NCBI GenBank assembly: GCA_973895155.1
Contig: OZ316893.1
Span: forward strand, 16,770,645-16,834,644
Reading direction: 5' to 3'
Source: Marsupella aquatica
Lineage: Eukaryota > Plantae > Marchantiophyta
DNA: 64,000 nucleotides
The notes beneath the pieces are model-generated. The model was not told the origin of the DNA, made no database searches, and worked only from the letters and a program-made list of their open reading frames with translations. Positions 16,064 through 64,000 of this stretch are shown here, piece after piece. Position 1 is the first letter of the stretch. The number at the start of each line of letters is the position of its first letter. The position numbers and the translations under genes are program-made.

Positions 16064-16090
16064 TTTTCCTGCCGGTGAATAATTCCCGTC

Positions 16091-29944: not shown

Positions 29945-32900
29945 CTACCCTGTGCGATTCACTGATTGTTGTTGGTAAGCCCGTAAGAAGAGCGAGTTGG
30001 AAACCACCGCAATCGAGCTTGCAGCCATCATTCCCCCTGCGAATCAAAATCAGGTTAGAAATGCCACTCAGGGAATACCAAGAATACAAACATTTGTAGT
30101 CATCCTTTGGCATTCAGTCACAGGTTCCCGAAATTCCGACACTTACCTGCAATGGATGGTGTCAATGCGAAATCAAATACTGGAAGGAGGATTCCAGCAG
30201 CCAAAGGTAAGGATACCACGTTGTATACCAGCGCCCAAGCAAGATTTTGATGGATTTTGGAAAGAATTGCCCGCGAGAGCTCAATAGCCTCAACAACCTG
30301 AGAATCTCAATGAAAGGTTAAAACTACAATAAATGGGGTCCGAAGTCATGCGAAGTCCGATATTTCTTTCATGCTAAGACCAAAACGTAGGCAAGAAGCG
30401 ACTTCCTAAGTTCTAACAAAATTGCGGTGGACCTTCCACAGTCTACCTCACAAGAGCTTCACCTCACACGGGCTTCACAAAATATCGATGAAATTCCTTA
30501 TCTCATCTTTTTAATTGTTCCCTCCATAAAAGGTAGCATCTTACATCGCTAAGTTGAATCTACACTTCCAGGATTCAAAACGTCTAGGTTGGAGCTAGGG
30601 CAGTTGTGAATGATATTGGACAAAAGATACGCGTGGCCACAATTGGGACAGGTAGGTCACTTGGGTTAAGGAGGGATACGCTTCTGGCTAGCATGTAGAA
30701 TATAAAGGCACAGCCTATCATAAGGTATGGAAACAAAACCGGCTCAGTTGAATCAGACCCATAGGGACCACATCATAGATGACAACAGTGTACCGAAGAA
30801 CCATTGATAGGGCAAGGAATACAAACTTGCAGCCCAACCCCACCAATACAACACCAACACCAAAAGACATGAACAAAACAATTCAGCCCCTCGTTCTCTC
30901 TTAAAGCTAGAAGAGTCACCTACGTCTACTTGACAAGAGTATCAATTTTCTTCATTGGCGTCGCCACAATTGACACTGACTTGACTTCTAGAATTAAGAG
31001 AAGAATTGAGGGAACTGTCCCTCTTGGAACATTCTATGTATTGGTCTCACGAGCTTGAGCTTGTGGAGAGCTATATTATGTTTACAACCTATCTAATAAA
31101 TCGCGATAAAAAGCTAGGATATGGGCCTACGGTCTAGAGTGAAGCTTCTAGACCGTGACTCTCGTGCACCACTATGATTGGGGGTGGAACTGGGACGGGT
31201 GTGATTATGAGGCACCACTGTGATTGGGGGTGGAATTGAGACGGGTGTGATTCTGGGCACCACTATGATTTGGGGTGGAATTGAGACGGGTGTGACTCTG
31301 GGGCTCCACTATGATTTGGGGTGGAATTGGGACGGATATGATGGTACCCACCATCTATTTATGAGCAAAGCTCGGGCATTCAGGCTAGCGTGTATGAACA
31401 ACTTGCATTTTTCACCAAGACCATCTTATAATTAGTTGACCTTCATTAGTCTGAAAGTCTGCTGAACGGTCACTCTGCAACCAAGCAATGACCGATGCTC
31501 ATACAATGAAGAGAATGGTGACCTGAGAAAGGCGATTCCGGAGTAGAATCACTGATGCAGCATCAGAGGCGGCATCAATACTCGCGTGTACCTTGAGGGC
31601 CATCCCAACATCTGCACATGCCAATGCTGGTGCATCGTTCACTCCATCCCCAACCTGCAGGTAAAACAAGGTCTCGAACTGACTCACAAGGTTTGAAAGC
31701 CAACATGTTTGGTTTCGAAGACGAGGGATAATCCACATCTTGCTGGGCTGTGCATGAATGAAGAAACAGGTTACTCCAGTCTCACCATGGCCACACGATA
31801 GCCTTGCTCTTGTAAGCATAGGACAAGCTGAGATTTCTCTTGTGGACGCAGCTCGGCATGGACTGCACCTTCCCTTATGCCAACTTCATCAGCTACGAGG
31901 GCGACAGAGGCAAGTTTGTCCCCCGACAAAACTAGTGTCTGCGTTTTCATATTCTGTAATCTACCATACCCACAAGCCACGTTCACACGATCAGGGGCGC
32001 CATATTGCTTGAGATATAGTTAGACTCTGATTGCACCAATTGTGGGATGGAGTAAGACATGTAAACGGTGTTCACAAACTTGATCGAAATACTGAGACTA
32101 CCAGCCGATCACTCACCTTCGAACGGTGTCTCGAGCATCATTTCGTAGTCTGTCTGTCAAAGCAATTGCTCCAATAACTCCCTTTCCATCTATTCCAACA
32201 AAAACTACAGTCTGAGACTGATGTAGGGATGACGAGTCCATTTTCTTCCCCAAAGAGTCCCGCAAGCTTTGTTCGAGTCCATGATCTCCTAACGAATTGC
32301 CCCCTGTGTTTCGAGTGCAACATCCTTGTACCCACTCAAATAGTCCGACCGCTACAATAGAACCATTCACTTCAGCCAGTGCACCACACCCAGGTTCTGT
32401 AAGTTGACCTTGACTAGAATGGATATCTAAGTAAGACAATTCCACGTGTCGAATTATTGCCGAAGCAATGGGATGAGATGTATTTTTCTCCACAGCAGCG
32501 GCTAATTGCACAACTTCTTCAATGGTGTAATCCTTAACAGTTGTCACTGCAGCAACACTTGGATATCCTTCTGTCAAAGTTCCTGTCTGTCACGAGTAAA
32601 ACGTACGCAGTCAGAACGACTTTAATTTAACATATATGCGTTGCACCCTGTGAACTGTCGAAGTTCTTCCCCTTTGATAGAGACAGCTAGTACTTACAGC
32701 CAACCCTGGTTTACACAATAACGGTCACAGTAATTCACAAATGCAGACGGCGGTGCGAAAGAAATAGAAACAAGAGGGGTTCCATATGTATACCTTGTCA
32801 AATATTACCGCATTCACACCAGCTAAGCGCTCTAGAACATCACCTCCTCGAATCAGAAGTCCTTGTTTAGCCCCTAGCAACAGTACAGTGCATTATTGCG

Positions 32901-35900
32901 GGGTCAAGGCTCTCCCCAACAACACACTACTATAAAATAATTGGCATCCATTTTTTCTCTACAAACATAGAGATGGCCACTTGTAAAAGTTAACAGATGG
33001 TGTCACTCAAAATATAGGCCAACGACAATGTGCTATCACACTCCCTTGTCTTACCAAGAGAAGTGCCCACCAATACTGCTGTTGGAGTTGCCAAGCCAAG
33101 GGCACAAGGGCAAGCAACGACCTGCAGAATTGACACACCCACGATACCTCAAAATACAAGAAACGAGCCTGGACACTTCTGCCCATTATGGCAGATACTT
33201 CCAGGTCGTCATGACAACTGTTCTGCCATACAACAGTTCAATAAACGTTGTCCACACCCTAACCCCACCATTTCTCACCCTATCAATAAGTCTACTACTA
33301 AAGAGTACACTGAAAGACTAGCTTATATTTCCTTCTTTGAATGTTCGAAAAGCAGATGGATTATTTCTCGGTTGAACGAGATATTACGACAAGTAAATGT
33401 TGGACTAAAAAAGTGTTCATCGTGCTTGTCATTGACAAGCCATAGCTCCAAGGTTCAAGCCGTGTGCCAATACCAAGCATGTGTCAGCTTGACATGTTTA
33501 AGGGACCCCAAAATATAAAAGCAAAAAGAAAACGTATGGTTGATTGATCAAGTGCAAAGGATGAGACGCTTAGCTCGTCTTGAACAGGAGAAAGGCAAGA
33601 CGTAACTCACAAGAACATCAATAGCGAGCTTGAGGCTTAACAGAAGTGCACTGCCATCAGGACCTGCGGCATCATTAAGAAGAACATCTGGCCAAAGATT
33701 GGTCCCAAGAAAGTACCTGGATCAATGGCAAGAAACGAGATGATCAAAGGGGAAGCAAGGTAGAATGAGAAGTACAGGGAACATAGGAGTAAGTTAGCGA
33801 CAGGTCAGAAACAAACCAAAAGGAGAATGTGGTTCCAGAAAGTGCGATGATGCAAAAAGCGAACGGGCCTGCAATAAGATCTGCTAGTCGTTGTACTGGC
33901 GCTTCCCGCCCTTGCGCTTCCTCTACCTGTTCACCAAACTCAATTCAGTAGCTATTTTCTCCGAATGATAAACAGGAACACCGGCTAGTTGGCCTACTGC
34001 CGCCTGGAGGATACCTCATTAGTTTCTTTGTCTAGGTGAGACAGCCTGCTAAGTCAAGCTAAACTATGAGACCATGCTGTAATAATGACGAGCCACTTTT
34101 GAAGATCAATTTCTGTAGAGCATAGTTAGGAATTTGGGTGCCGGGGAACCACTAACGAGGGCATTGACTTTGTCAGAGGACAATTTCTCAAACAGTTTCC
34201 CACGTAACCTTGCAGAATACAATGCATAACATCAAAATCTACTTGGCAGTAATTGAAAAGGGTCCTGTGCCGAAACAAGAACACACCAATTGGATAATAT
34301 TTGAGACGGTGGATAAAGCTCCTGAAGTAGTAGCTTCAACTCTTAAAGGCCCCTCCTGAGATAGTAAACACATCGGTTTTGAAACTTCTCAATGTTGGTT
34401 CCACAACTACCAGAAAGTGGCCGGGCCAGTTTATGACCACAACGAACACACACATATAGGACAGCATGAAGCGCCATGGTATAAAGTTACCACCAGTTTG
34501 TCTCTTCATATTCAAAGCAAAGTGAACACAATCAAACAAAACATTTTTGGTTCTGTGTCCAACAAGGTTCAAGCATTTACCCAGTTGATAGTTCCTGCTG
34601 ACACAAGAAGACCCTTGGCCTTCGGTACAGGAAGAGGTTCGCCAGTGAGCATGGACTCGTCCACAACGCTCCTTCCGGCAACAACCTCCCCCTGTGAAAT
34701 GTCACAGGCCCCGTTTAATGAATTGACCTCCTTGCCCTCAGGTTATTCAACTGTATGCCGATAAAGCACCTCTTGGAAGAAACACTTACATCAACCGGAA
34801 TAGTTTCACCAGGTAGGACTAGCAGACAATCGCCAAGCCTCACTTGTTCAGTTGGAACTCCAACAACCAACCCTTCAGTCACTCCCACTGCCTCATCTTT
34901 AGATACTTCACTTCTTCCAACTTCAGACACTACTAGTCGGGATGTGGAGGGCAACAATGACTGTTGACACAGTAACAGTGAACACAAAACATCAGTATAA
35001 TGCTCCACATTTCGGAACAAAGAAACTATCCCATTTTCAGTTGACAGAAGAATCAAAGAATATTATAAAAATAGAAGAACCAGACTATCTCAACTGCACG
35101 AAAATAAAATCATGTCCAACAAACATCTTACTAGAAGTTCTTGCATACTGCTAGAGGCTTCGGCACGAGCTTGTCGCTCCAATGCACGGCCCAGGAGCAC
35201 AAAAGCCAACAACATAACCTGTGAGAACAGAAAGGCTGTAGCCATCAGCAACTTGGAAATCAAAACCAAACACACTATATGAAGTTGCAAAGATCTTCTC
35301 ATGTCTACCTTCGTTCATTTTGCAGACACTGACATTGTACTCATTTACTTCAATAGTTCGGTTGAAAGAAAAAATGTAATAGCCCGATTGCTAAAAGTGT
35401 ACTAACTGTGATATGGCTGCCGTTAGTTCATTTTGCAGACACTGACATTGTACTGATTTACTTCAATAGTTCGGTTGAAAGGAAAAATGTAATAGCCCGA
35501 TTGCTAAAAGTGTACTAACTGTGATATGGCTGCCGTTACCGAACGTCTTGCATGAATTAACTTTAACAAGTCAAGATTTCCACCGTATAGTCTGGACTGG
35601 ATGCAGAGAGACAACTAATTGAAACTTGCAAATTGAAAGGTTGGATTCAGCACCGGTTCGTCAAAGAATGAAGCATCCCAGTTGAGAAATGGGAAGGCCA
35701 ATGAAACCTGACGAAAACAAGCATCTATTAAATTTAAATGTCATATTTCACAATACTAGCAAATTACTTCAAGTGGCCACTAACAGCAAGCATTCGGAAT
35801 TGGGGCAAAAGTGATATTTGCTTGAGAGTGGAGCAGCAAGCGTCAAAACTTACAGCACTGATGAGAAATGCTGCACATGCGCCAAAGCCAACAAGAGTGT

Positions 35901-37451
35901 TCATGTTGGGAGACCTTCGCAGAAAGGCCTTGAAACCATCCAGAAGAAGTTCTAAGTACCTCCAAAACATATCCCCCCATCAGTTCCAGAAACTACATGC
36001 TCTATGTTCAGGCTCTGCTTTAGATCGCCAAAGTAGTCTAGTAAGTATGAATAACAAAATCATCCTCCACAGTATGGTTTGGTCAACTTTGCTAGAGTAC
36101 ACTTTCCCATCTCACAATTTCAGCGGCACTCTGACGAAATGCGACATGCCCACAATTGCAGTCTAGGGTGCAATTATTATCACAACTAGATCAGCCATTG
36201 ACCAATGATCACAGAATTTGTTGAGAAAGAATAACAGAGCCAGGTGGGCAGACACAGAGCATACCTCTCGCTGGTCCCAGGAGTGTAAGAGAAGCAACGC
36301 TGGCCTTCCAGATTGGATTGTGCAGAATTCCAAAAGCATGGCCTGCAGATTCGGTCATCAAACCACGTAAAAAACTGAAAAACAATTCCCCCAAGTCGAG
36401 AGTAATTCGGTGATTTGAGTTATTTGTGTGCCTGACAGTAAGAGCACCGATATGCTTTATTCATTACAAGGAATTCTACACATCCAAGAAGAAGACAAAT
36501 AGAAACGGCAGAGAGTGGCGCAATCACTTCTCGCTTTCCCGGAGAGGAGAGGAGAGGAGAGGAGAGGAGAATTGCAGATTAAAGAATTTAAACAGGACTA
36601 TTGGTACTGAATGTACCTTCCATGAAGTCATGGACACCCAAAGAGTGCATGAAGTGAGTGGCATGGGTTCCACAACAAAGGGCAGCAAGAGCCCAAGCAA
36701 ACGTCACTTGCCCTCTGCTTCTTTTCATGAGATCCTTTCTCTTCCTAGCAAGCTCCTCTCGCTTTCTGCTAATGCTCCCCTCCGCGTTTCCTGGTAACCT
36801 GGGCCTCGAGGGAAATCCACAGACAGTAAGACGTGAAGCCAGCTCATCCCTAACTCTCCCTTTGTCCTCCGACGTCTTAAGGGAAATAGCTGCAGTTTCT
36901 GTCAGTATATTCACAGCAACTGAGTTCACCCTCTTGTCTGCTACTAGTAGATTACGAACCCTGGCTACACAAGCCCCGCACATCATCCCTTGTACATCTA
37001 GTACCACTGAATCAAAGCCCGGAACCTCATCTACAATGTTTCCCTGCAGCTCTGGCTCGACAAGACTCGCATCACTCAAAGCACAGAATTTCCTCGATTT
37101 TCTTGGTCCAACCCCAGCTCGATCACAGCTACCACCAATCTTCCATCCCAACCTCCTTGCAGAACCTTCGCACGTCAGAGACAAACAATGAACGACACCC
37201 CTAGAACCGTTAGCACCGCTTCGATGAAAGGCGAGATTGTCCACAAATGATAAGGTTCTTCCCTTGTTTAGTTTGTAACCCGAAACTTGCTTTCCACGAT
37301 GCAGACGACAAGCTGGTAGATGAAACCCTGAGAAAAATAAATTGCGCAAGCGTCTAACTCGGAAAGACTTCCAAGCCCTCTCATCCTCTAATCTAGAGCG
37401 AGATACACAGGAGAGGTGAGACGGCCACGAGCTGAGGGCTTGAAAAGACAT
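29945..37451 (-). CDS. HMA8: Chloroplast P1B-type copper-transporting ATPase, PAA2/HMA8-like, 17 exons
   Basis: Transit-peptide-like N-terminus, GMMCGAC, SPNMNTLVG, DASFFDEP, LPGETIPVD, TGEP, CPCALGLATP, FDK|TGTLT, SHPIA, GDGVNDAPALA, YN, MAASS. GT-AG exons approx.: 37451-36617, 36342-36265, 35951-35854, 35707-35654, 35218-35132, 34960-34790, 34691-34581, 34355-34288, 33926-33817, 33715-33611, 33121-33055, 32873-32794, 32586-32117, 31960-31786, 31654-31523, 30297-30147, 30036-29945. Confidence 0.93.
31155..31345. repeat. Intronic minisatellite, ~45-46 bp x4
   Basis: Unit approx. CACCACTATGATTGGGGGTGGAATTGAGACGGGTGTGATTCTGGG. Confidence 0.85.
35313..35538. repeat. Intronic 113-bp tandem duplication
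   Basis: gttcattttgcagacactgac...gatatggctgccgtta occurs twice, nearly identical. Confidence 0.9.
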
Positions 37452-38850
37452 GATGTCACCCTGTCCAAACCGTCATAGATGATAGATTATGTCCTCGATT
37501 TCACAAGGTGCAATGCAATATAAGTAATCCCCCGACTCATTCTGTGAATTTGACTACTTCTATTGACTACGTGGCCTTGAGCTGGGTTTCTGCTGTCGTG
37601 TCAAAGCCTGAAACACAAGCAACATTCAAGTGAGCAAGAATTCGCGGAGTTTGAAGAAAGAAATGGCATAGCGTCTATGCAAGGCAAATCATTCTGGCGA
37701 GTTGCCCAACCGGTGCATTATGAGAAGTCAAGTCTGACAGTTGTCATCTAAAGGCAAGGGAATCAATACCAGAGAAAGAGCCCAACGATGAGATAGAATG
37801 ACTATCCAGAGTATAAAAACTGTTTGAAGTCAACCACCCTATACAGAGTTGACAAAGCACGACTACAAGAAAGTTGAACTGGGTAAACCTCAAAAATTAA
37901 TTCCAGAGACTTAAGAGAGAAACGCAAACTCGTCTATACTACGAGCACAAAATGGAGTTTTCTTCCACAGCATTGAAGACGGAAAGTGAAAGCTGATAGA
38001 GAGAGAGTGAACATTACAAATTTAAGGATCACGTCGACTGCCAAGATTTGCATGCTGGACGAGGTTGAAGTAAAGCGCTTTCAGGTTGCTGCTGGGTTCA
38101 TCAATCACTTTCTGCAACATCGGACCTTGTGCTCTTTCGCTAGTTGCCGCAATAAGTCGATATAATATGTTAGAATGTGGGGACCGAGGCAATTTAGCAG
38201 GGTTGAGTTATAGCTAAGGCGACTACTAATGCGCCGCCTCCTAATGCTTTCGGAAACCCGCTGTCAATCGGGAATGTACATTCTTGATCACGGAATTATG
38301 TTCTCGACTCTGTTCGGACAGTGTAGAATTTTGAAATAACAATTGTTGTCAGGTCCTGTGGCATGTGAAGGGGAAGAAATCGTCCTGAGCAAACGTTTCT
38401 CCAAGAAGTGCCGCTACAATTTGGGAGAAACGCAGAGACAATCTAGGAGAAACGCCAGAGACGCAGTAGGCTAAAGAATATGAGTAACAGAATGTAGATC
38501 GAAATCTTCACTAGTGTATTGTGAAACAAAAGATCGAAATCAACCAGGTACGTCGCTATGGAGCTTTCTCACCTTGTATACTACGGTGACGGTAGTCGTG
38601 AGGAAGGGACTGATGCAGGAAAGGATACACTTATTCCAAACGACCTTCTTCTTATCCTTTCGTCCACCCATGGGCCCACAATGTCAGAAAGGGTTTGCTT
38701 TGGGTTTGCTTTCTGTTTTGGTTTGTCCTGGATAGAAAGATTCACCAAGTGGGAAACGGTGGAGTGATTTAAACCAGCTCTAGCCATATAGCATGCTCAT
38801 CCTGGAACATGCTTTACTTTTTGTCTTGTAGTGATATTAAGTGGACAAAA

Positions 38851-39020
38851 AATATAAATAAAATACATGCAATAAAAGCACATAGTGACCAATGGAAAGT
38901 ACAATTTTATTACACAAAATTGCTACCAGTTGTACACAATGAAATCAAATAATATAAATAAAGCACATGCAATAAAAGCACATAGTGACTAATGGAAAGT
39001 ACAATTTTATTACACAAAGA
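38851..39020. repeat. ~100-bp-period AT-rich duplication
   Basis: acatgcaataaaagcacatagtgac.aatggaaagtacaattttattacacaaa occurs twice. Confidence 0.8.
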
Positions 39021-39599
39021 TCCTACGAGTTGTGCACATATTTCAGTGTGTTTTATTAATAACTCTTATTCAATAAAAACCATAAACTTAGGAAATAAAG
39101 CCACAAGGGGAGCTTAAGACAGGATGTGCTGACATTTCTTAGAATCATTCCTTTCACTCATGAGTATACTTAAAAGCGGTAGAAAATGAAGCTCTTAGTT
39201 TCTCTTTAGGACTTAACAAAGTTTGCAAATTAAGGGGGCTGCCAAAATAAATTCAAAACACTATAGAATACCAAAAATTTTAAAAGGGGTCCAAAAATGA
39301 ATTAAAAATCTATGTGATACAAAGGATGCCCTTGTTAAGGTAAATTCAAATAAAAATTCATGATACACAAATATGAATAAGACAAAACATGAGAAGTTGG
39401 ATTCACCATATAGCAGCTTCAAAATTTCTATCCATAACAAAACCTGTATCCACAAGATTTTACCATCAATAGTACTATTTCCGTGAAATTGTTTAGTAAA
39501 ATGACACCGTGAGATGAGAGAAATGGGACAAGTCTTGGACTCCTCCCCAAGTCTTGGACTCCTCCCCATTTTATGTGCCTAAGGGCAGTTTAAGGGATA

Positions 39600-42500
39600 T
39601 GACTTTTAACTACACTATTTAGTCTCACACACTCTCTAGTCTCACACACTCTAATTAGTGTGAGGTTATATTTGAGGTAAGTGACAGTAATTAGGGTGTG
39701 TGACATGTCACACCATTTAGAATGGTAGTAAAGTATATCGTACTATCTAGGTATAGAGGTTTTGTATGTGTGCTATATAAGCATTTAGTGTTTAGTTTGA
39801 GTTGGTGGTAGAGGGATAGTTTTCCCCTTGTGTTGACTCAAAGGCCTCATTTTTCAATGTTGAGCCTTTGAGCACAAGCTTTGGTGGCTATGGTGTGGCT
39901 GACCAGGTTGTGTGCATGTCACATGGATTCCTTGAAGCACAAGGTGCTCAATGGCTTGACATACATATGTGATCGCATTGGATGGGATAGTTGTTCGATT
40001 TGCACCATTGAAGATTACATTGAAAGATCAGCTTTGAACTCTGGTGTACGGACTATGCAAAAAAGTTTGATTTCATTGTGGTTTTGTTGTTGACGATTTG
40101 TGGTATCTCGGATCAGGTTTGAACACATCGTTGGTATCTCGATCTGTTACAAGTTTATGTTGAGAAAGCTCTAGGGAATGCAAAGCTTTGAGTTGTTGAG
40201 TTGCAAGATTGGAGTTGTAGTTCACATCGATCGGCATTGCAGCATTTTGGAGGACTGATTGTGCGGTCGATGATCGGTAGCTATTGTCAACTATTGTGCG
40301 CGGATTGCTGAGAGTATTCGCTATAGTATTGTGAAGGCAAGTCGGTTGGACTTGTGATTGTTTGTGATTCTAGTTCGGGACGGTTCCAATTGGGAGTTGA
40401 TAGTTGACAGTTGAAGTTGTATGTTGCAGACTTGAGATTTGTCAAGGTTAAAATTGACGGATAATGCATTTCTACAAAGAAAGTGATGTTTAATGTTGGT
40501 GAATTGTGTTGCCTGCAGCGACATAACGCTCCGCGAAGAGGCGAGGTGCGGCGGTGGCCTAGGGCACAAGGAAAACAAGTGAACAATGATTTTGTCCTAG
40601 AATTGTGGTGGGGTTTTTGCAGCAAAAGGGTTGTGAAGGTCTTCCGCACGCGCGAAACATTGTTCCATTGTGGGTGCATATTGGAGACTGATCGGCTGCG
40701 GAACACCATTCTGTTGTGGTAGTTTTGGGAAGATTGGTCTGCCCCAAAACACTGTCACCCATAGGAAAGGGTTGTTTTAGCATTTGGAGGGGCCACCCAT
40801 GGATGATTACCATGAGTTTCAAAAGGCTCATTTAGTGAATATTGAGGCATGGAGACAACATTGGTCACCAAACTATGTGTCCATCACTTATGGCACAAGT
40901 GTGGTTGCCCAACCCATTGCTACAGCTACGGCTTCCTCTAGCAGCACTAGCTAGAGTGGCACTCTATCAGCATCCAACACTACTCCTATCAGTGTGATTG
41001 TGGTTGGGAGTGGAGGTACGCCAGCATTTAACCCTGTGATGAAGTTCTTTGAAGTATTGAAGCAAAACTATCAAGGTGTGAGAACTGATAAGTTGAAGGG
41101 TCTTTAGGAGTTCTAGCGCAAGGCTAGAGAGAGCCTACGTGAGGCATACACTCGTATGCAAAGGTTGATTATTGTCACGCAAGCAGTGACAAAGGCCCAA
41201 GTGGTCCAATTTTGGTATGCAAATTTGGATAGAGAATTGCGTCGTAGAGTGAGAGATGTCACTCTATTGAGGGATTCAGATCTCACATTGGCTATAGTTT
41301 TTGCACTTGCTGAGCGCATTAAGCTCAATATGGTGAATGAGAAGGTGGTGACTTATGGATTTGCCAAGGAAGCACCAAGGTTGCATCGACGCCCACACTG
41401 CAACCTATTGCACGTAAGAGCTAGAGAGAGAAGCCTACAACACGGGAATCTACTAGTCAAAGACCTATGCCCTCTTATGTTGGACAATAGTCAGGATATT
41501 GGACCTGTGGTGGGGATCATGCACAGATATTGCCCGGATAATAGAGAGCAAGAAGGGGCATCTATACCTGATCAACAACAGTGTGATCATTGTGGAGTTT
41601 CTGGACACACCAAATTTAAAGATAGATGTTTTGTACTTCATCGTAAACTACGACGGGAAGGACCACATGCATATGATCAAGGAAGAGGAGGTAGAGGTGG
41701 TGGACATGGCCGAGGCATGCCACATGCAAGAACACAAGGAGGTAATCTTGCTCCTGCCGTTACCACGGATCCTAAGTATGCAAAGGTTGCTCAATTGGAG
41801 CAACAACTAGCTACGATGGCTAGTTCTCAAGTTAGACCTACTGCTAGTGATGGGGCTTCTACATCCTATGGAGCTTCAACCCCTTATGGAGCTGATGGAG
41901 ATCTTGCCACCATGGGATTTATGTGTGGCACTGCGCATGTTGATGCATCAATAGCTTTGACTCAAGGAGTAGTAAAAGCCCTTGAGCCCCGAGAAGCAGT
42001 GGTAGAATTGGATCCTTAGAGAGGGGATGCTCGTTGTCAACAAAGCTCCCTCAATCATTTACATTGTTAGAGGCAATTAAAACTACCTCTATGAACCTGG
42101 TTTGGACTAACCCAAGCGGGGGTAAGTTGGCGGAATCAAGTGATGTTGTGATAGGGATGATAAGTACCTTGTTGGGGACGGCCACTACTATAGTGCGCAC
42201 GCCAATATTTTTAGCTATAGATATGCTGACATTAAGAGTTAGTCCAGCAGATGGGGTTCAGATTGGCGGCCACATTATGCGAGGATACTCTAGTTGTTGC
42301 TTCTTGTGCAGAAGCAACGCCCAGTCCTGAAGCAGTGGAGTTGAATCCACCTATTGCCAGTGGTGAGACATGGCATGCAGCAGCGGCAAGGTTGATAGAT
42401 TTACCAGCGTGCCCTGCCTATGAGAGGACTAGGTTTAAACCTAGTGTCATATCATTGGATAATTGGAGTGGTATCTTCTGATTAGTTGGGCCTTCTCAAA

Positions 42501-43518
42501 CAATATACCAGCCAGAGGAAGTGTTACTAGATACGGATGCTCAGCCCTTGATTTTGGGTAAGTCTACAATAAAAGGATTGGGGTTGCGTCCTGATGATTT
42601 GGAGGAGTGTCCCTTTCCCATTTAGACTTCATTGGGGAGACCTACACCTACACAACATATCACTTGACGAACACTTGAACTTAGGATTCAAGAGGATCAC
42701 AAAGGATAATTCATGGATCCAAACTCGTGCTATTTTGACTAAGGCTGAGTCATATGATGTCTTGGTGGGATGTACAGCTCTCTATCCTATGGGATTTGTT
42801 CTTGATTTTTGGAATGAAGTGGTGTCGTACTGGCTTGATTGGAAATCTGGAGATGCTCAATTGAGCCAATTGCCAGTGCAATTTAGTGGACCTGTTGGAG
42901 GCCCTAAATCTGCACCATTGTCTTTGGCAACATTTAATTAGTAGTGTGATTATTGGAACTGATGATTTGATTGAGGGTAACGAACATGCAATAGATGTTC
43001 TTGTATGGAGGCACATGAGGAACACTTGATGCATGGATTGCCTATTGATAATGTTGTAACACCAGTATGGGGTACTGGACAGGCCTTGCCACAAAGTGCA
43101 GCCCAATTGATACATGATGCATGGCGTCATGCTTTTACATCACAATTAGGAGCAGAGCAGTCAATTGCACAATGGACTAGTGACTCTTTCACCACTAGAT
43201 ACTACTCCTATTGCATGGCAATATCCACATGAGGGTATTTGTTTGTTGGATTTATTTGGTGGAATTAGCACAGGATTGGCTGTCATTCTTCAAGTCGGCA
43301 TTCTTGTGCGTCATTATTTGTATGTGGAGAGTGATGAGACAATTCGTCAAGTCTCATTACGTCATGTGGCATTGTTAGGCATTACCTACAGTTGTTGCCT
43401 TGCCAGTGAGGGCCGTTCATGGTTATCAACGTACATTACCAGCTGATATTTCACTGTTGGGGGCGGATCATTTGGATTGCGTTGGCCCCATTGATTTAGT
43501 GATTGCAGGTTGGCCATG
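39600..43518 (+). mobile_element. Degenerate Ty3/gypsy-type retrotransposon with gag, protease and a cytosine methyltransferase; left boundary approximate
   Basis: Candidate LTR end ...TTAGCA (40782) followed by TT and PBS-like TGGAGGGGCCACCC. gag-like ESLREAYTRMQRL..QFWY, knuckle CDHCGVSGHTKFKDRC, protease VLLDTDAQ (42521) and YDVLVG, then DNMT motifs. Confidence 0.7.
43231..43518 (+). pseudogene. C5 cytosine DNA methyltransferase N-terminal half (motifs I-IV), truncated by an insertion
   Basis: Motif I LLDLFGGISTG, motif II YLYVESD, then after a frameshift motif III PADIS and motif IV GPIDLVIAGWPC. Confidence 0.85.
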
Positions 43519-46500
43519 TGTGATGCCTAGCCAGGAATCACTAGGCCAATAAGATGGTAAACCCGGGTGGTATATACTAAATCACATTAGTATAAGGAGG
43601 AAAAACAGGAATTAAAATATAAACAATTAAGGGTAACCATGGAACCCGAGTTGAGGCCGGAAGTAAGGGTGCAGCGGCAACCAACGAGGCACAATTAGGG
43701 TTAAGGTATGCTAAGTACAGGCGGCTATGGGTAATCAACGGACAGTCAGGCAACGGCAGCTAGGAGGGGGGAAAGGATTGTTCACCAAGGATGGCAACTC
43801 ATTTGCAAACATTGATCAAGCAAGGGATTGTAACAACTGTCAACTGCTTAGACAAATATTGTGGGTGGAAGCAAATACAAGATGGGAATGAGCAATGTCA
43901 ACCAAGCCGCACATTTTTGGGGATGCCTGTTCGAACGGGCAACTAAGTACATTGGAACATACGAGGATGAGGAGTTGGAGAGAGCAGCCCAAGAACAACA
44001 GCAGATTGCTTGGCTGTGAAAACTCCATAAGTATGCCTTCCTCGGAGGAGAGCTCATCAAGGCTGAATTTTTGTGGACGCCTACTACCAACCAGCACGAC
44101 AACCTCTTATTTTGTAAGAGCATAATCGTTGGCATCCAGGAGGCCATCAACCATTGCAATGATGAACATTGGGACTTGAAGGGTTGTATGGAGGCGTGGA
44201 CAAAAGAAACAGTGTTGGGAAAATTGTCAAGAGCGGCCAAAATAAAGAGAAAGATGACCAACAACAAAGAAGCCACACCAGCCAAGAGAACAAGGTTGGC
44301 AACGTCTAGAAAGCTGGCCAAGCAGGGGAACTAGAGATAGGAGGAGGCCAAGGAACCAGAGGTTGACCCAATCAACGCCATCCCTACAAGGGATGATACA
44401 TGGAAGGGTTGGGCGACGGTCATACCGCAGGCAGTGCAATTATATTTTGCACGAGAAGAGGATGCATGTTTTACAGCCATGCAGTCTTGAAAGTACCAAG
44501 GCTTCATGGCCGGATTTGGCTTGGAGACCTTTGTTAGATTACCGTGGCTCAAGCCGGAGGTGTTGGATCATGGGATCACAAGGAAAATGTAACCAGGGTA
44601 TATGGGAGGGAATTCTATCTCATTCCCAAGGTGATTGCCAAAGTATTTGGCTTGCCGATAGGCAATAAGACCAAGGTAGACACCCGGAAGAACTTGTTGG
44701 ATAAGGAGTTTAGGTCATTTCCTAGGCCATCAATGAAGAATGGCTTCTACTAGAACACATGCACCAACCCGCACATTGGAGAAATGATTGATTTCTTGCG
44801 AATGACAATGCATTGCAATTTGGCAAGGCTGGAGATTGGCAAGGCACAAGTCTACCTGGCAGAGAGGCCAGACCCAAGCCAGGACTACAACGAGTACCTC
44901 CTCACCCAATTGAAGAAGATCTTGAAGGAGGAACAACAAGTGATAGGCCAGAGTCGCGGAACTCGACTACCTTAACACTTAGCTCCGGCATCGCTGACTC
45001 CGACGCTGAGCTCGCTTATGGTCCAGGCCCGGATAGGCCATCCGGGGTGGACTTAGCATAGGGAGACTTGTGGGCAATGAGACGTGGCACTAGCAAGGCA
45101 AGGAGCCAAGCTAGGGGCACACACTAAGGACTCGGACTAGCCGATGGCTGGTTGGGTCAAGGGGAAATGGGCCGGGCTCAAGGATGGCCATCCGGACCTC
45201 CAGATGGACTTTGAGTTCTGAGGACTTGGGAGTGAGCTCCTCTTGGGCCCAAGGCCAATGGAGTTGACACCATTGGCAACGGACGCTTGGGGTGCAAGTT
45301 GTGGCCCGATCCGAGTTGGGTCAGTCGGGGGCCCCAAGCGGCGATCAGACCTGAGGGCCTAGGCATGAGCGCACTGGGTCGGCCCGGTCACAACAGGCTA
45401 AGGCACTCTGCTTGCGGATGCCTATCAAGAAAGTTATGGGAGTTGCTAGTTGGTGGCGCGCCCATTATGCGCGATAGGATCCGGGTTGGGGGCCAAATGA
45501 TTAGGGACCAAAGTTGGTCCGGGGGTGGGAGGTCTCCAGAAGCATATATGAGGGGAGTGGTGTCTCCCTAGGGGCCAAGGGCGAGCCGAAGTCATGAGCC
45601 ACGGTGGTCGCGACACTATGGGAAACCGCCAAACAAAAATGGCGATATCTTCCCAACGAAAGTCCGTTGGAGGACTTCTTAGGTGCGTTGGAAATCTCTT
45701 GAGAAGGGCTATGCCCTCCTGAGCTCAACTGGGTCTGGGGGTGCCCTAGGTTCTTGTGGTTGGCGGGTGTTAGCTCGCCCGCTTGCCAAATCCTGCCGAA
45801 TAGCAACCAAGCCACGTTCGGTCTCCCAAGGGAGCTTGCATTGGGGAGGCAAGGCCAAGTAGGTGTGGAGGTTGAGTTCCAAGGGTGCTCGGCTCCTAGA
45901 CCACCAGTGGGGCAAACCAGGAGCGGTTGCTAGAGTCGGGGCCATTCTGGTCCCAACGTGTCAGGGCGGTCAGGGCGGTCAGTTGGTGATGGATAGATAC
46001 AAGGGGGAACCCAGGCCGCACCCAAGGAAGGAGCTGTTTTGGATGAACAGTGGGCGTGGGTTCTGGTTCCGGCTTATGGCATTGGGAGGACCTATCATTG
46101 ACCTATTTACCAACGTCTGTTGAGCTTGAGTTAGGATGCTAGACTTGTTGAGTTCTATATCTTGAAGGGTTACTTACCGAGGTGCTTGGTTGCTTGTGCA
46201 GATAGGGAGGACCGTTGAGTAGCAGTCGTGTTAGAGAGCAAGTGTGGCTTTGTATGGGAGGGGCTGCTGGCGGTGCAAGGGGCACTAGGTTGCTTGCTCG
46301 AGGTATTCCGTGGAGGCGTTCGGGCACCAAGGGCACTTAGGCGTGAGTGCTGGGATTGGTGAGGGCGCTGGGTGGTAAGGTCCACCACTGCCAGGGGAGT
46401 GTGTCCCGACTTGATTATCACATGCCACTATTGTGCCAATACGCCCGGAGTCAGACCTTTGCACTAGTACTTTCCCTACAGGCAAGGGCACCAAAAGAGG

Positions 46501-48182
46501 AGTTGGAGCAGAGGCCGGCAGCAAGGAAGCCCAAATCGCCTGACAACCCCACAATAGAGCAGATCTTTAGGCCGAGGCCGGAATCCACGCCAATGGAGCA
46601 ACCAGCCATGCAAGACCTTCTGCAAATTAGCAGAAGGAGAAGCCGGCAGCTGTAGCGTAGGTACCGGTATAGGGCATTGTTCAAGAGGCAAGCATAGGAA
46701 GGCCCACAAGAGTAGATCCCTTTGTCGCGGCCGCGCAGGGTAGGAGGCAAGAAGACAAGCCTGAAGTGTGGATGTACGTGGGAGCCTCAAGTCTGGAACC
46801 TGAGGGACAAGGGCCCAAGGTTCCGAGTCACAATGGGGAGAGGCAAAGGCGGGCGTGGGAGCAGGAGCAAAGGCCAACACCCATGCGCAGCTTTCAGCAG
46901 GAGGCCTCGTTCACAGCTAGTTCTCAAGATGACCCGGAGGAACCGGTACTCCAAGCCGGCAGGGAGGGCATGGAGGACTACAATGATGAGGACTTTGGCT
47001 ACGGGTTGGATTGTCCTATACCAGGGGTGAGGACTTGTGGCCGGTTCATCCCCACATTGCCGAGAGTGGTTTGTGAGGACCCAAGACAACAGAGAAGCCC
47101 GAAGTCTCCCCCACCAGACGTCCCTCCTCCAAATTACGATGGGATGAAACAGGCCGCATAGGAGTTGCAAGAGCGACTCAAAGATCTGGTGGAGGCAACC
47201 CTAGCCAAGGAGAAGGATTTACTAGGGGGAGGATGACCATAAGACATTTGGCAGCTTGCCAAAGAACAAGCCGCCCCCTACCCACGTTTGACGAGGTTTG
47301 AAAGGTGGTGTGGGAACAAAGGCCGCGTTGGGAGATGTCGGTCTCTCCTAACCACTCCACATATGCACGTTGCAAAGCCCTGGAGTACGGGAAGATGTGC
47401 TGATTACTTGCCCTTGGCATCTTTGGGGCAGAGATGGAGACGGGGCCCTTTATCCAAAGGGAGATGTTGGATAAAATCTGGTACGTTGGAAGAAGCAGTG
47501 GCCTTGGAGAGGATGAAGAAGGAAGAGGTCATTCGGTGGCTTAGAGAGAAGGAAGCCAAGTTTGGAGATCTAAAGGCAACCAAGTAGGCTCAAGATGAGC
47601 TATGGGTTAGGAAGCATGAGCTTAGCATTGTGCAGGGGCAACTGGATACATCCAAGGCTGATAACAAGTTATTCAAGAGTAAACTTGCCCAGACCCAAGG
47701 GCAATTGGCCGAGGTGCTCAAGGAGAAGGAGAAGTGGAAGCGAGAGCTAAAAGATGTAGAGTCAACTCACATAATGATTTGCAACACGGCCATGGTGGAG
47801 GCACAGAGGAAGGAGAGGGCACTGAAGGGGGAGCTCAAAGATCTCTGCAAAGCCTTTCAACAAAAGAATGCTGAATTGGATAGGACCTACAGGGGTGTTG
47901 ATCAGCTGAAGGAGGATCTCACAACCCTGTCGGCCAACTTTCAAGCTGACCTGCATAGGAAGGACAACATGCTCGATCAAACCTATGAGAAGATGAACAA
48001 GATGCAGTTTGATGTCATCCACGAGCTCAATGCGGAGCTGAGAGCAACCCAGGAGGAGAGGGCAGCCTTACGGAAGACGTTGGACAAAAATGAGAAGGAG
48101 TTGGAGGATGCTCACGGGGATTTGGACAAGACCCAAGAGGAGTTGGAGGACACCATGCGGAAGATGGAGAACTTGCAGCGGC
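43519..48182. mobile_element. Second, older copy of the protein-coding LTR-like unit, truncated on the right
   Basis: Starts TGTGATGCCTAG like 5745. Colinear homology with 5745-8935 (LFCK.S..VGI.EAI, MIDFLR.TMHCNL, RATQEERA) with many stops. Confidence 0.88.
44952..46389 (+). mobile_element. 1,438-bp solo LTR with AG..CT termini
   Basis: AGTCGCGGA...TCCACCACT with 5-bp TSD GCCAG (44947-44951, 46390-46394). The host frame VIGQ|GSVSR is restored on removal. The 3' end matches the LTR next to the PBS at 26674. Confidence 0.88.
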
Positions 48183-51100
48183 TACCTGGGAACTCCTCAA
48201 ATCATTGTTTGTCAAGGAGTTTTGACCCATTGGAACCTCGGAGTTGGCAGTGCTGAAGTTAGGACGACTTCCCTTCAAGGAAAACAAATCCTTTAGGAAG
48301 TTCTTGCAATGCTTCCAAAAGTTGGTAAGACGTACAAAAACCAATGCATCGGAAGGTATGCAACTTCAATGGTTGGTAAATTCTTTACCGCAGAAGATGA
48401 GTTTTGCAATTAGGAAGGAGAACTTTGAGACCTTGGCCGACGCAATTAGGGATATCCAATTATATATTAATGCAGATATTACAAGCCAAAAGAAACAATT
48501 TAAATCTGAAAGCTCATCATCTAAGGAAGGATCGACCAAGAAAAAAAATTAAAAATCCTAAGAAGTCGAGAAGTGACAACTCAAGCTCGGATAGTGAAAG
48601 TAGCACTTAGAGTGAATCATCTTCTAGCTCTGAGGAAGAAAAATCTAGGAGAAAGAAAGTCAGGAGGGGGAAGTTGAAGGTCAAAATAGAGGCTAACACT
48701 CCAACTCTAGATAACCTCGTAGCTCTTACCGACCAGTTGCGGGCTATCATAGCAGAAGCTAAGCCAAAGAAGAAGGTAGTCGTTGAGGACAGCTCTGTAT
48801 GATGTGATTTATGTTACAATACCAGACACCATAAAGATGAATGTCCTAAACTAAACTCTAGTCATGTCCGGCAAGTTATCGAGACCAGGCAATGTCAAGG
48901 AGAAGTAGAGTACTTCCTAGGGGATGAAGCTAATAGCATTTTTGGCATCAATGAGACATGAGGACAAGATCTGGCCAACCGCCCTGCATCCCTCTAGTCA
49001 GGGTTAAGAAATAACCCGGGCAAGATGTATCCACAATCATCCAAAATCCATTTGTGGCTCTTGGGCCAAACGTACAGAGATTTGCGGCATGCTATAATTG
49101 TGGTCAACCTAGCCATTTTGCTAGAGAGTGCCCAAATGGAAGGAAACAAGGCGATGGGCAGCCAGCTCAGTTATGTATGCGGGTATGTATGGGATGCCAA
49201 CAGGAGGGTCACATGCTAGGACAATGTCCTACTTGGTTGGCAAGATTGGCCACAAATCACAAAATCTTGCCGGTCAAGGTCCCACCACCAGGCACTGCAC
49301 CAGGTGGAGTTCGAATCAATCACATTGAACTAGGATGGCAAACAGATGCCGAGGCCAAGTTTGGACCATCTGATGACAAAGCCGAGGCCTTATTGACGTT
49401 CTCAGAAGAGGAACTGGACCACGACTGCTACCGTGTTTCTACTCAATCAACCAGAAGGAAAGAAAGGTGGGATGGTCTGGCCAAGAACAAAGGGAAGGGC
49501 AAGGAGGAAAGGGTCGACGTACTCTTCATCAACATCAACGGAGGGAGAAGGGCTGGCAACCTAGGTAAGCCCTGAGCTCACTAGTGAGCCCAATCCTTCA
49601 CAAGATAGTGATTTCAATCGAGATCACCCCAAGTTGTTCTACCCTTCCATTACGGCCAGTGTTAAGGAAAAACTTCGGGAATTGGAAACATTGGAGAATA
49701 CCAAAGCAATAGCCAAGGATGTCAAAAGAGCCAAAGCGCTATTTGCTTTGGAGAACCCTACTTCTGTGCAACCCAGCGTTCAAAAACAAGCCAAAGCCAA
49801 GAGAGAGAAACTGGCAGAAGAGAAACCGGTAGTTCCCTATGACTTGGCTAAGGATGTACTAGAATCTAGAGTCTCGGCAACAATAGGTCAACTTTTGAAG
49901 AATAGCTTGTACTTCCAAAAACAGTTAAGGAAGGCAATACTTGGCAAGCCATGATTACCCAAGGTAGCACCCAGATCCGACATGCTGATGATAGAAGAGG
50001 ATCAAGGAGCCCCACCGCTACCATTAATGATTCAAGAAGAATTATTACTATGTGTACCCATTGATGGAGGATCAAGGGTATGTATTATGATTGATTCAAC
50101 AGCAATAGGGTGGGGTTTAACATCGGAGATAACTGGAAGAGTGTTGAACATGGCTAATGGCTATCAGGTTATTCCCATGGGAGTCCTCACTGACATTAAA
50201 ACTGAGATAGGAGGAGTCTTGTTTAGTATCAACTATGTTGTAATGAAATTGGTGAAGCCTACATCGTTCAGATTACTGATTGGCAAGCTGTGGTTCTACC
50301 TAACCAAAGTGATAGAGGATTGGGGGAAGAAAGAATTCACTTTTGAGACCCTCACTATCACGGTATCCTGGGACACCATGGATGACGGGGGGAAGAGTAT
50401 CCGAGAAGTAGACGGGTACAACAGTGGGCTAGAGTTTGCTGATTAGGTATGTTGGCTAGAATGCCTCACAGCCCTGACCAAAGAAAGTGTCTTTGGACCA
50501 GATGTACCCCCCAACGGACTTTGGCAAGAGCCAACATTTGGAGAGTAGTATGGAAGAGGAATGTGATGCAGAAGCAGAGGACTGCTTCACCATAGAGTCC
50601 ACTTTTGTAGCTTCAATTCCAGAGGAATCACCAAGGGATATTTGGTTAGATAATTTGACTAAGAGGGGAGCAGCACCTTAGGTATTGGATTTTAAATGGG
50701 CATTGTGGTAGGGCCGACAGGATCCACAATGCCGGCTATCATCAGCAACCAATTAACTGCCAAGATTTCGGCTTACGGGGCAATCACCAAGGCAAAATAG
50801 ATAGAGGCACTATTGGAAGCCGGACAAGTCCAATGGCCAAAACCTCAAGAAGCAAGAAAAGATGAGGTCAACCCTATCAACCCAGAGCCAGGTCAAAAGG
50901 AGAAGCCGACACCTAAGCTACAGAATCTGAGGCCAAACATTACGGAAGAGGTAAAGTCCTTGGACGACAAAAGAATCAAGTCAGCAGACTTGACTAGTAC
51001 AACCAAGATTCCAGTCTATGGAGGGATGAGACTTGAGAGGCTGGAAGCCAAACTAGACCCAAATTTGAAAAAATAGATTAACATGATCCAAGCACGACAA

Positions 51101-52407
51101 TACTGCAAGCTTGACCTAAGAGAAGGCAGGGAATTGAACTTGGGAAGGGATTTAGCACCTGAGCTAGAGAAGGAGATCAATGAGTTACTGATTGAATTTC
51201 AGGATGTGTTTGCATGGAGCCACCAAGACCTACAAGGAGTAGACCCAAAATTGGGGGAACACCAAATTGATCTGATGTTAGGCGCCAAATCGTTTAGACA
51301 GCCAATTTGTAGGATGAACCCTAAGTACTCCTTGATGGTCAAAGCGGAAATTGACAAACTAGTTGAAGCAAGATTCATCACCCCAGTCCTACATTTGGAC
51401 TGGGTATCCCCAATTGTGATAGTTCCCAAGAAATCTGGACCAGATGGTAAACCCAAGATACGGGTTTGTCAGGATTACAGGAAGTTAAATGAAGCCACGT
51501 TGAAGGATCATTTCACATTACCCTTTATTGATATGGTCCTAGACATGGTAGCCAGTCATGAGTTATACTCATTCATGGATGGATACTCTAGTTATAACCA
51601 AATCAGGATTAGGCAGGAGGACCAAATCAAGACGGCGTTCATCATAGAATGGGGGATTTACGTCTTCAATCAAATGTCGTTTGGACTCTGTAATGCACCA
51701 GCTACGTTCCACAGGTTGATGGTAAACATTTTTCATGACTACTTGAAAAAGTTCATGGAGATCTTCATTGATGATTTTGCAGTGTTTGGGAAAGCATCGA
51801 AACATGCTAAATACCTCAAGGAGACCTTCATGAGATTTAGGGAAGTGGGTCTCAAGTTACACCCTAATAAATGTTTCCTTGGAGTAACGGAAGGTGTGCT
51901 ACTTGGTCACAAGGTATCAAGGAAAGGTATTGAGATTGACAAAGGTAAGCTAGCAATATGGCTGGATATCATGCAACCTAAGAACATAAAGGATGTTCGA
52001 TCCTTCTTGGGGTGCATTGGCTATTATCGCAAATTCATCAAGAATTTTGCCAAACTAGCTTTACCATTGACAAATATGCTCACGGCAGGAGCAGACTTCA
52101 AGCCCACACCAAAAAAGGTGACAGCAATAGTTGAATTAAAGCAGATGCTAGTTGAGGCCCCAATCATGATAGCACCAGACTGGAACAAGGATTTTCATGT
52201 TTATGTAGATGTCTCAGGTTTTTGTATCGGTTCAGTATTGAGTCAGCTGGATGAGAACGGAAGGGACCATACCATATACTATGCAAGCCGAAAGCTTGCC
52301 GATGCCAAAGGAAATTACTCAACCACCGAAAGGGAGGCATTGGGAGTCATTTACTCCTGTAAGAAGTTTAGGCATTATCTACTGGGTTACAAGGTGATCT
52401 TTCTGTT
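48183..52407 (+). pseudogene. Non-chromovirus Ty3/gypsy (Athila/Tat/Phygy-like) gag-PR-RT-RNase H, degenerate, no integrase
   Basis: Knuckles CYNCGQPSHFAREC and CMGCQQEGHMLGQC, VPIDGGS protease, DVFAWS, WVSPIVIVPKK, DGYSSYNQI, FGLCNAPATF, FIDD, YVDVSG, YSTTEREAL. Confidence 0.9.
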
Positions 52408-53005
52408 GCGCCCCTAACCCGGGCCTTAAATCCAGTTTAGTTCCATGGGGTGACCTCGGCCCCCAATAGGGGTGAGGGTTTGGGCAAGGAGGTGTGTAGT
52501 GGCCTCGATTAGCCCTAAGTCGGGCTAAGTCAATATACTTACTGGTATAATACTTACGCAACTCGTACTGGTCATAGGTATATTTGTTTTCCACCGCTGG
52601 AATATTCCCACAGTTAGTGACTCAAACTAACTCCCAGCTTGGGGCTTGCAAGCCATCGACGCGACAGAACCTTGTAGTATGCAATGGGTGGCAATCCCTA
52701 CCATTAGTCCGCACCCAGTACGTCCCTTGAAATGGCGCCTTTGCCCAGACAAAACATATACAACACCAGCTACACGCGATAGAATCAGAGGGAAAAGACT
52801 ACATTTACTCAGCGAAGAATCAGTTTACATAGTTGACTCGACTTCTAAGGGGGTCAACAGGCCCAATGGCAGTCGATGCCTAGTCTCTACGAGGCCCCGC
52901 CCGCGCTTTCCTAGCAAGCTCGACTCTGGCTCTCACTCTTTAGTGCACTCTGACCCTGCTCAGGCCGGGACTCCACGTGCCTCGCCTTTTCTTGCGCTGA
53001 GATAA

Positions 53006-53995
53006 CTAAGCCTTCTCCCCCTCCCACAACGGAAGGGGAAGCCTAAATACTACGGTTGCCACCTGCTGAGCTACCTGTAGGAATTGGTTATTGAGGTCAG
53101 TCAGGCTGGTAACCCGAGCCAAGGATTCCGAGCGCAACTGAAGCACGGTGTCGTCCAGCTTCTTGAGATCCGCTTGCGCCTCGCTCAACTCTTGGGTTAG
53201 TCCATCCCGCTGTTCGATGGTGCGGACTAACTCCTCACGGCGGGTAGTGGCCTCCTCCTTGAGGTGTTCTACCAGCATTTGGAGGCGCCCGATCTCGTTC
53301 CCCTTCGCCATGAGTTCTTCCTCCAAGTGGCTTACGATCCGTGGTTGGTGCTCTAACATGAAGAAGGCTGGTTGAAAGTACGTCGAGACTTGTTGTCCGA
53401 TGTACGTTGCCAGCTCCCCTAACAGAGTCTGACTAAACTTCTGGACCAGGTCGTAGGCCATGGTCCCTGGGGCTACTTGGTAGTCCTCCATCCTCTCGGG
53501 TACCGGCGGTTCCTCAAGCGGGGCGGCAAGCTCCTCCGTAGTCTACAATGCGGAGGGGAAGGTTTCTTCAGGTGGTGGAGGGATTGGAGGTGGTTGAACC
53601 GGGGGTAGCGGAGGCTCGACGGGAGGGGGCGGCGGAATTTCAACCCGGGGAGGTGACGGAGTATTAATCAGGGCCTCTGGCTCAGGGTTTTCCCGAGGTG
53701 CGGTAGTCCGCTCGCTCGGGGTAGCCTCCTCCATAGCGGGGGTGATATTAGTCGGGGCTGAGGTGGCCATATTCTTTCCCCTGGCCTCCTGCCGTGCCTT
53801 GTACCAGGTGAGGATGATGGCAATATGACTTCCCAGGTAATTCTTCCCCCCGATAGCCATACCTCCCTGAGCCCGCTTAAGCTCCCCCGAGAACCTCCGA
53901 TAAAAGAATTGGGCCCAGTTTTGCCGTTTGTACTGTTCCACCTGTACGATCGTGCAGAGGGAGATCTTGGATCGTGGCTCAATCATGAGGTACAC
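53006..53995 (-). pseudogene. Retrotransposon accessory ORF remnant (PMD/Athila-ORF1-like C-terminal part, Pro-rich linker, coiled coil)
   Basis: NWAQFFYRRFSGEL..YLGSHIAIIL parallels DYNGYLLNQLKKIL..RLGYHMPLL of the 5860-9506 protein. Followed by poly-Pro and a coiled coil. Confidence 0.5.
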
Positions 53996-55606: not shown

Positions 55607-55648
55607 GAAGGCATCTGTCGGGGAAGGTAGTCGACATGGATCGACGGA

Positions 55649-56445: not shown

Positions 56446-56648
56446 TGAGTTGCATGTAGAGGAATGAATCTTGGCGAGGTCCGCCAACATGCATCTCAAG
56501 TTAGGACTTGCCCTCGCTTGTAGAGGAGGCTAGACACTATGAATGTCAGCGAGGTCAGCCGACATGCATACATATCAGCGAGGCCGCTGACTTGTATCCC
56601 TCTATTGTCAACCATTGCGATGAGCAAGCAAATATGAAATGAACAACG

Positions 56649-63990: not shown

Positions 63991-64000
63991 GCCGAAGGCC

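Follow-up and report, generated by a model that had tools for sequence, protein, structure and literature searches.

DNA methylation is the main tool with which a host silences its transposons, and the question raised here is what a C5 cytosine DNA methyltransferase (DNMT) is doing inside a retrotransposon of the liverwort Marsupella aquatica. The element lies within 64,000 nucleotides of contig OZ316893.1 (assembly GCA_973895155.1, positions 16,770,645 to 16,834,644), referred to here as the window, and a first-pass annotation had described it as a Gypsy-type retrotransposon with a DNMT directly after its protease, cut short by an insertion at 43519. It is almost certainly an insertion-truncated copy of a multi-copy bryophyte Gypsy-type family that encodes a DNMT3-type enzyme between protease and reverse transcriptase (RT). 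It is also probable, with distinctly less confidence, that in this family the DNMT enters the particle together with Gag and there methylates the fresh cDNA of the element before integration, the methylation being a prediction. The features concerned are as follows, relatives being numbered P for proteins and L for loci.

39706..40030, + strand: probable 5' terminal repeat (A unit), limits approximate; low-to-moderate confidence, from contig depth and an element order like that of the relatives' A repeat
40757-43519, + strand: frame of decayed gag, two zinc knuckles, protease and DNMT (motifs I-IV), from three-frame translation
40757..41404, + strand: gag capsid region without its N-terminus, stops present; 53% identity to residues 52-260 of Marchantia P0028
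41470..41650, + strand: two CCHC zinc knuckles, the first (near 41470-41530) frameshifted, the second, CDHCGVSGHTKFKDRC, near 41582-41630
42389..42884, + strand: aspartic protease with an altered triad, D-T-D, stops and a frame change; Asp_protease_2, E 0.038
42885..43236, + strand: linker from protease to DNMT, frameshifted, collinear with relatives when aligned to them
43237..43519, + strand: N-terminal third of a predicted DNMT3-type C5 methyltransferase, motifs I-IV, ending at the catalytic Cys; 77-78% to the Marchantia DNMT
43240-43263, 43321-43335, 43445-43453 and 43493-43519, + strand: DNMT motifs LLDLFGGI, YVESD, DIS and DLVIAGWPC, respectively, from three-frame translation
43519..52404, + strand: unrelated Gypsy element inserted in the DNMT and itself cut within RNase H (RH), separate from the DNMT element; RVT_1, RT_RNaseH, zf-CCHC

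The truncated copy and its counterparts

The order of gag, zinc knuckle, protease and DNMT motifs I-IV on one strand is borne out by three-frame translation and by homologs. The adjacency of protease and DNMT is not, as about 130 linker codons precede motif I. Motifs I and II are in a separate frame from motifs III and IV, with one frameshift between 43378 and 43399. Of 98 candidate proteins, 44 matched the 98 amino acid frame that holds motifs I and II (E<=0.01, best 9.7e-28). PF00145 is present in many of the 44, and on these alignments the homology is far beyond chance. The matches include named proteins of Marchantia polymorpha, Calypogeia fissa and Sphagnum that share the layout, which upholds the proposal of a DNMT-bearing Gypsy-type retroelement in land plants. 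Indeed, residues 52-974 of Marchantia P0028 align collinearly with the whole window stretch.

The window copy is dead, a fragment, with 8 stops in its gag and protease segments, at least 7 frame changes and the altered protease triad. The first ~50 residues of gag are beyond recognition. The protease, its core VLLDTDAQPL at 42521, has 52% and 39% identity to the Marchantia protease region and 70% to P0001. Pfam scans of the gag and DNMT pieces of the window, including the 98 amino acid frame, gave no match, the weak protease match being the only one; Retrotrans_gag is matched by the relative P0025 (E 3.5e-4). When the window element was compared by blastn with four relatives there was no match at the DNA level.

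The boundary at 43519 holds. A paralogue of the insert elsewhere in the window (5745-8931) starts at the base matching the insert start (5745), and the contig flanks upstream of 43515-43519 are diverse (agreement 0.51-0.68). The RT of the insert is 35% identical to that of the DNMT family and falls outside the family clade in the RT tree. The downstream half of the DNMT was sought across the 64 kb of the window and was not found there; the missing 3' part may have been deleted, or it may lie past base 64000, given that the insert is in turn interrupted at about 52404.

Other copies in the same genome were viewed through contigs from four public DNA runs (at most four samples, from two studies), thousands of short contigs being aligned to the region at >=80% likeness, such that summed depth does not equal copy number. 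In run X1 this depth was 36,000-45,000 in the gag and protease bins, 23,000 in the DNMT bin and 41,000-66,000 over the bases of motifs III-IV, which are as deeply covered as gag, compared with roughly 40-190 for contigs identical to the window. Past 43519, loose contig ends in all four runs (5, 12, 7 and 3 contigs) run on in the register of the relatives' catalytic loop. The first-pass annotation had allowed that other copies might lack the DNMT, but they carry it. In X1 the window has A/T where the other copies have G/C (227 places against 145, and 174 against 91), a skew as expected from the decay of methylated cytosines.

Compared with five loci, the window DNMT has 66-75% amino acid identity, with a nonsynonymous divergence (dN) of 0.18-0.26 and a synonymous divergence (dS) of 1.9-2.6, hence a dN/dS of about 0.1 with dS near saturation. 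For the same loci dN is 0.21-0.22 in gag and 0.36-0.42 in the protease, so that the DNMT is as constrained as gag. The low dN/dS indicates that purifying selection has acted on the DNMT as a component of the element.

Architecture of the relatives and type of the enzyme

The full order in relatives is A-gag-knuckles-protease (PR)-DNMT-stop-RT-RH-integrase (INT)-PHD-B-A-B, in which A and B are repeats. It was established in 80 metagenome loci of one family, 85-96% identical in the DNMT, which were fetched through the DNMT and so cannot show copies that lack it; a protein cluster related to these loci contains members named as Sphagnum. Among loci with room for them, 59 of 64 have the protease on the upstream side and 41 of 49 have RT on the downstream side. 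Eighteen of the 80 run from gag through integrase, ten of these 18 with a PHD match. The integrase is of the DDE type and follows RT-RH, and Pfam scans of the relatives gave no match to a Chromo domain, the PHD finger standing instead.

The repeats, A (~330)-coding-B (~115)-A-B, are complete in L050, L051 and L061 and partial in L026, L065 and L068. The ends are TG..CA, and the 4-bp target duplications are perfect in five of seven complete loci and match at three of four bases in the other two, L050 and L061 being at the same site. There is a polypurine tract 5' of the first B, and the junction of B and A is a short palindrome. The bases immediately after the first A are complementary over at least 10 nt to A in 10 of 17 loci; of these ten, eight share the same core and six have the match some 30 nt behind the TATA box, which would suggest that reverse transcription is self-primed. 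This resembles the self-priming reported for Tcn1/Tf1 elements (PMC6317226). As the polypurine tract and primer site define its limits, the long terminal repeat (LTR) would be B-gc-A, and the genomic form would correspond to a two-LTR circle that is circularly permuted through opening within the LTR. Copies that end in a single B (A-internal-B) were seen at L045, L060, L016 and L022, with a perfect 4-bp duplication at L060; these would fit either recombination between the two B repeats or integration of a one-LTR circle.

In the window, the candidate A unit has, in the same order as the A of relatives, a TGTCA start, a TATA at 39774, a CTCAAAG..CTTTGAG hairpin at 39837-39872, GCTATGGTGT at 39887 and GGCTTGAC at 39953. 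The summed depth of the public-run contigs is high across 39603-40004, but local alignment to the relatives is weak, an equal or better score being reached in 11 of 300 shuffles. A perfect 16-nt palindrome, one of two in the window, lies at 39698-39713, at the probable 5' end of the element, and is like the relatives' B|A junction minus its 2-nt spacer.

The first-pass annotation had proposed a search for copies with motifs VI, VIII and X in frame with RT. The motifs and RT are indeed there, in one frame, but in moss-type relatives a stop codon intervenes. One frame is held in 28 of the 40 loci that have both the end of the DNMT and the start of RT, and in all 28 the stop is exactly 80 codons past the DNMT. 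Anchored from downstream, the codon is a stop in 50 of 50 loci that contain the site (TAG 34, TAA 16), followed by CAA CCC ATG, with the ATG present in 49 of the 50. As this in-frame stop falls after the DNMT, the enzyme would be made at Gag levels, and the RT block could be expressed through readthrough, re-initiation at the nearby AUG or a subgenomic RNA. Where the first open reading frame (ORF1) is uninterrupted, its product stops 88-108 residues past motif X in Marchantia (1278-1281 aa), in the Calypogeia cluster and in other subfamilies, and 98-158 residues past it in more distant proteins. Termination after the DNMT is therefore old, the DNA context coming from one family only. In P0304 and P0063 the DNMT is fused to RT.

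A profile of eight relatives, compared with the PDB, matched DNMT3A best (E 2e-16), then DNMT3C/B, a DRM-type entry (7e-8) and M.HaeIII (9e-8), with 57 PDB sequences at E<=1. An AlphaFold model of the relative P0009 (predicted local distance difference test 71) matches DNMT3A/B folds (E 4e-16; target template modelling score ~0.77), although the element DNMT, which is intronless, is only 20-24% identical to the DNMT3A/B structures. Simple patterns, which miss divergent spellings, found motif I in 84, IV in 114, VI in 116, VIII in 106 and X in 82 of 120 near-full domains. Full domains run from motif I to X unpermuted, and the circularly permuted order of DRM was not encountered. By profile, motif order and predicted fold, the domain is a DNMT3-type, unpermuted C5 methyltransferase. 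The Pfam scans of relatives gave no match to DUF3444, the C-terminal domain of host plant DNMT3, which is a multi-exon gene, the element DNMT being fused instead to gag and protease. In many relatives motif IV is WECQ for WPCQ (for example P0066, P0067, P0080, P0084, P0097 and P0304).

In the DNMT tree the window fragment belongs to a 14-row clade (Shimodaira-Hasegawa-like approximate likelihood ratio test, SH-aLRT, 100) with every named bryophyte row, P0001 being closest (82% over 87 columns), a placement that points to a bryophyte as the likely host. This tree holds 58 proteins selected from the 120 near-full domains and the RT tree 30 rows; both are quick searches with SH-aLRT only, without host DNMT3 and Klebsormidium nitens rows and without a reliable root. 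Viral contigs gave no match to a single query and 17 distant matches (22-53% identity) to a profile query, five of which were used as outgroup.

Possible roles of the methyltransferase

In the reading favoured here, ORF1 (Gag-PR-DNMT) would be made in excess and RT-RH-INT-PHD rarely, by readthrough of UAG-CAA-CCC or by initiation at the AUG two codons on. The Gag-PR-DNMT product would be packaged, the protease would free the DNMT within the particle, and the freed enzyme would methylate the new cDNA of the element, which might then evade host detection or arrive pre-marked for silencing. The cDNA would be self-primed, and the form inserted would be the two-LTR circle opened within B-gc-A.

Several results weigh against this. 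The window copy is without its own 3' part, contig depth over the DNMT (bin 43221-43421) is about half of that over gag and protease, and among the 80 loci whole DNMT frames are open in only 3 of 51. Every search for proteins or loci started from the DNMT, and members of the family without it were not sought. The stop counts as one inherited event, since the 80 loci are all one family; its context departs from the CAR-YYA readthrough signal at the sixth base, and folding of seven stop-site copies gave no unusually stable RNA structure 3' of it (z -0.8 to +0.2). The observed/expected ratio of CG is 0.38 in the window copy and 0.36 in the pol of the DNMT-less insert, so that CG depletion is no stronger in the former and there is no compositional sign of self-methylation. 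The catalytic PC is replaced by EC in several chlorophyte-type relatives, and the DNMT domain of the K. nitens Gypsy element gave no methylation in yeast, a result that its authors deem inconclusive (PMC5890265).

These last two points would also suit a different role in the same family, in which the DNMT would target either chromosomal copies or the DNA of the host in trans, as self-limiting silencing, or would serve as a DNA-binding or structural module. The stop codon fits here as well, in that it uncouples the DNMT from RT and joins it to Gag; as it separates the two, the argument made for K. nitens, that presence in the same polyprotein implies action in cis, is removed. Yet a protein fused to Gag would be placed in the particle, which is the site of cDNA synthesis, and the catalytic motifs IV, VI and VIII persist in members from algae and bryophytes alike. 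The related SymbioDIRS-Dnmt3 enzymes, moreover, methylate CG de novo (PMC5890265). Such a trans or non-catalytic role is regarded as possible, but doubtful.

That the locus is an assembly chimera, or a DIRS-type element misread as Gypsy, is very unlikely. Split direct repeats are typical of DIRS/PAT (PMC5890265), but so are a tyrosine recombinase and the lack of a target duplication, and the relatives make 4-bp duplications and encode a DDE integrase. The junction at 43519 is matched exactly by two contigs, though these extend only 25 letters into the insert, short of the 31-letter threshold for bridging. The one-off capture of a host DNMT3 or DRM fragment by a dead gag-protease element, which the motifs I-IV and heavy decay of the window copy might suggest, is refuted for practical purposes because other copies extend the DNMT past the cut, with further evidence against it in the relatives that run from gag through integrase, the layout common to named liverwort and moss proteins, the low identity to DNMT3A/B, and the absence of introns and of DUF3444 matches.

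Wider occurrence, setting and significance

A second arrangement, RT-RH-DNMT-INT-PHD, is abundant (P0065-P0101, P0087, P0106, P0247-P0303), its named hosts being the chlorophytes Hariotina reticulata, Enallax costatus and Haematococcus lacustris and, in partial form, Monoraphidium neglectum. This chlorophyte-type group is its own clade, apart from the bryophyte type, in both the DNMT and RT trees, which is consistent with one old acquisition of the DNMT followed by a change of position. No description of the arrangement was found in the literature searched. The names K. nitens, Physcomitrium and those of vascular plants are absent among the homolog matches listed, which is weak evidence given the length windows and limited candidate sets. 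P0297, from Cymbomonas tetramitiformis, combines integrase domains with a DNMT region that is related (39%), and gave no Pfam match to RT. A related integrase-PHD protein, P0109, is labelled as from a Spirochaetia metagenome-assembled genome, which is probably eukaryotic contamination. It is tentatively suggested, as an idea that is less likely to be right than wrong, that all of this is a single ancient green-plant Gypsy lineage, from chlorophytes to mosses and liverworts, in which an active DNMT3 would be packaged at Gag levels, RT and integrase rationed by the stop after the DNMT, the self-primed cDNA methylated and a circle opened at the internal palindrome integrated, the DNMT having shifted between two polyprotein positions with the same RT lineages.

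The first-pass statement that DNMT-bearing retrotransposons are known from dinoflagellates (SymbioDIRS-Dnmt3) and Klebsormidium (KnitGypsy-Dnmt3) agrees with the parts of PMC5890265 covered. KnitGypsy-Dnmt3 of K. nitens (de Mendoza et al. 2018) has DIRS-like repeats, and its DNMT belongs to the Pol ORF along with RT and RNase H (PMC5890265), and its type has been named the 'Gypsy-DNMT3' of streptophytes (bioRxiv 10.64898/2026.05.21.726589). It and the bryophyte family have in common an intronless, unpermuted DNMT3-related domain, a Gypsy-type polyprotein, A-coding-B-A-B repeats and purifying selection on the DNMT. The Gypsy set of gag, PR, RT, RH and INT is present in 18 of the 80 loci of relatives, the window copy lacking RT onward. 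Whereas KnitGypsy-Dnmt3 has its DNMT in one ORF with RT and RNase H, moss-type relatives have the stop between them, the fused state being seen only in P0304 and P0063. The PHD finger, 4-bp duplications and self-priming site of the bryophyte relatives are not mentioned for KnitGypsy-Dnmt3 in the parts of PMC5890265 covered. Because the DNMT and RT do not share an ORF, and no K. nitens sequence was compared, the bryophyte family is filed as a variant of the Gypsy-DNMT3 kind rather than as a member of it.

SymbioDIRS-Dnmt3 of Symbiodinium is alike in its DNMT3-type domain and split repeats, and its enzymes are the only such ones shown to be active on CG (PMC5890265), but it has a tyrosine recombinase in place of a DDE integrase and is reported as an independent acquisition. 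The EpiLTRs of Cymbomonas and Euglena are likewise LTR elements with a C5 DNMT and a chromatin reader, but their DNMT is sister to DNMT4, is accompanied by a DAM domain and a chromodomain, and in Cymbomonas occupies the 3' end of pol (bioRxiv 10.64898/2026.05.21.726589, in part). The host DNMT3 and DRM of non-flowering plants share the DNMT3-type catalytic domain; the former has DUF3444 and the latter rearranged motifs, as far as PMC6453930 was covered, and the element has neither. MuLV, Tca2 and SIRE1 also have two same-frame coding blocks split by a single stop, and the bryophyte context is near the CAR-YYA signal, but in the bryophyte family the stop falls after protease and DNMT; at the Tca2 junction there is internal-promoter activity and not readthrough (PMC2194720, in part). 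Of the features that would mark a chromovirus of the Tcn1/Chlamyvir kind (REXdb), the relatives have a self-priming-like site that resembles Tcn1, and PHD in place of a Chromo match.

Within the window, regions 5745-9506 and 43519-48200 belong to one Gypsy family, in which a long coiled-coil ORF lies 5' of gag; the two copies are 69-73% identical, the first seemingly truncated. A second insertion, probably a large DNA transposon, interrupts the Gypsy pol at about 52404 (52405-60800, - strand), followed by an ORF for a Ulp1 protease, 40-bp tandem repeats and several long ORFs without a Pfam match. A near-complete Copia-like pol/gag (11290-15718, - strand) and a cluster of transposase-like ORFs (16079-19503, + strand) were both judged by eye. 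Exons of a chloroplast copper P-type ATPase of the PAA/HMA type lie at 32113-37472 (- strand), the DNMT element being about 2 kb past the HMA-domain exon; the best match of a copper-ATPase exon is at 69% and the best named match is PAA2 of Dionaea at 54%, a land-plant affinity.

No report of a DNMT-bearing Gypsy element in land plants was found in the literature searched, which covered few subscription papers. Streptophyte DNMT3 retrotransposons are cited without bryophyte names in the parts covered of PMC12344493 and bioRxiv 10.64898/2026.05.21.726589, and neither 'Marchantia' nor 'Sphagnum' occurs in three supplementary files of PMC5890265. Gene annotations of bryophytes may count too many DNMTs where they include the domains encoded by such elements. 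Elements of this kind were already known in Klebsormidium, and the value of the locus is not in its dead copy but in the family that it reveals. Why a retrotransposon should keep a DNMT has been open since 2018, the known hosts being difficult to manipulate; the genetic model Marchantia polymorpha has uninterrupted Gag-PR-DNMT copies, which makes the question testable there.

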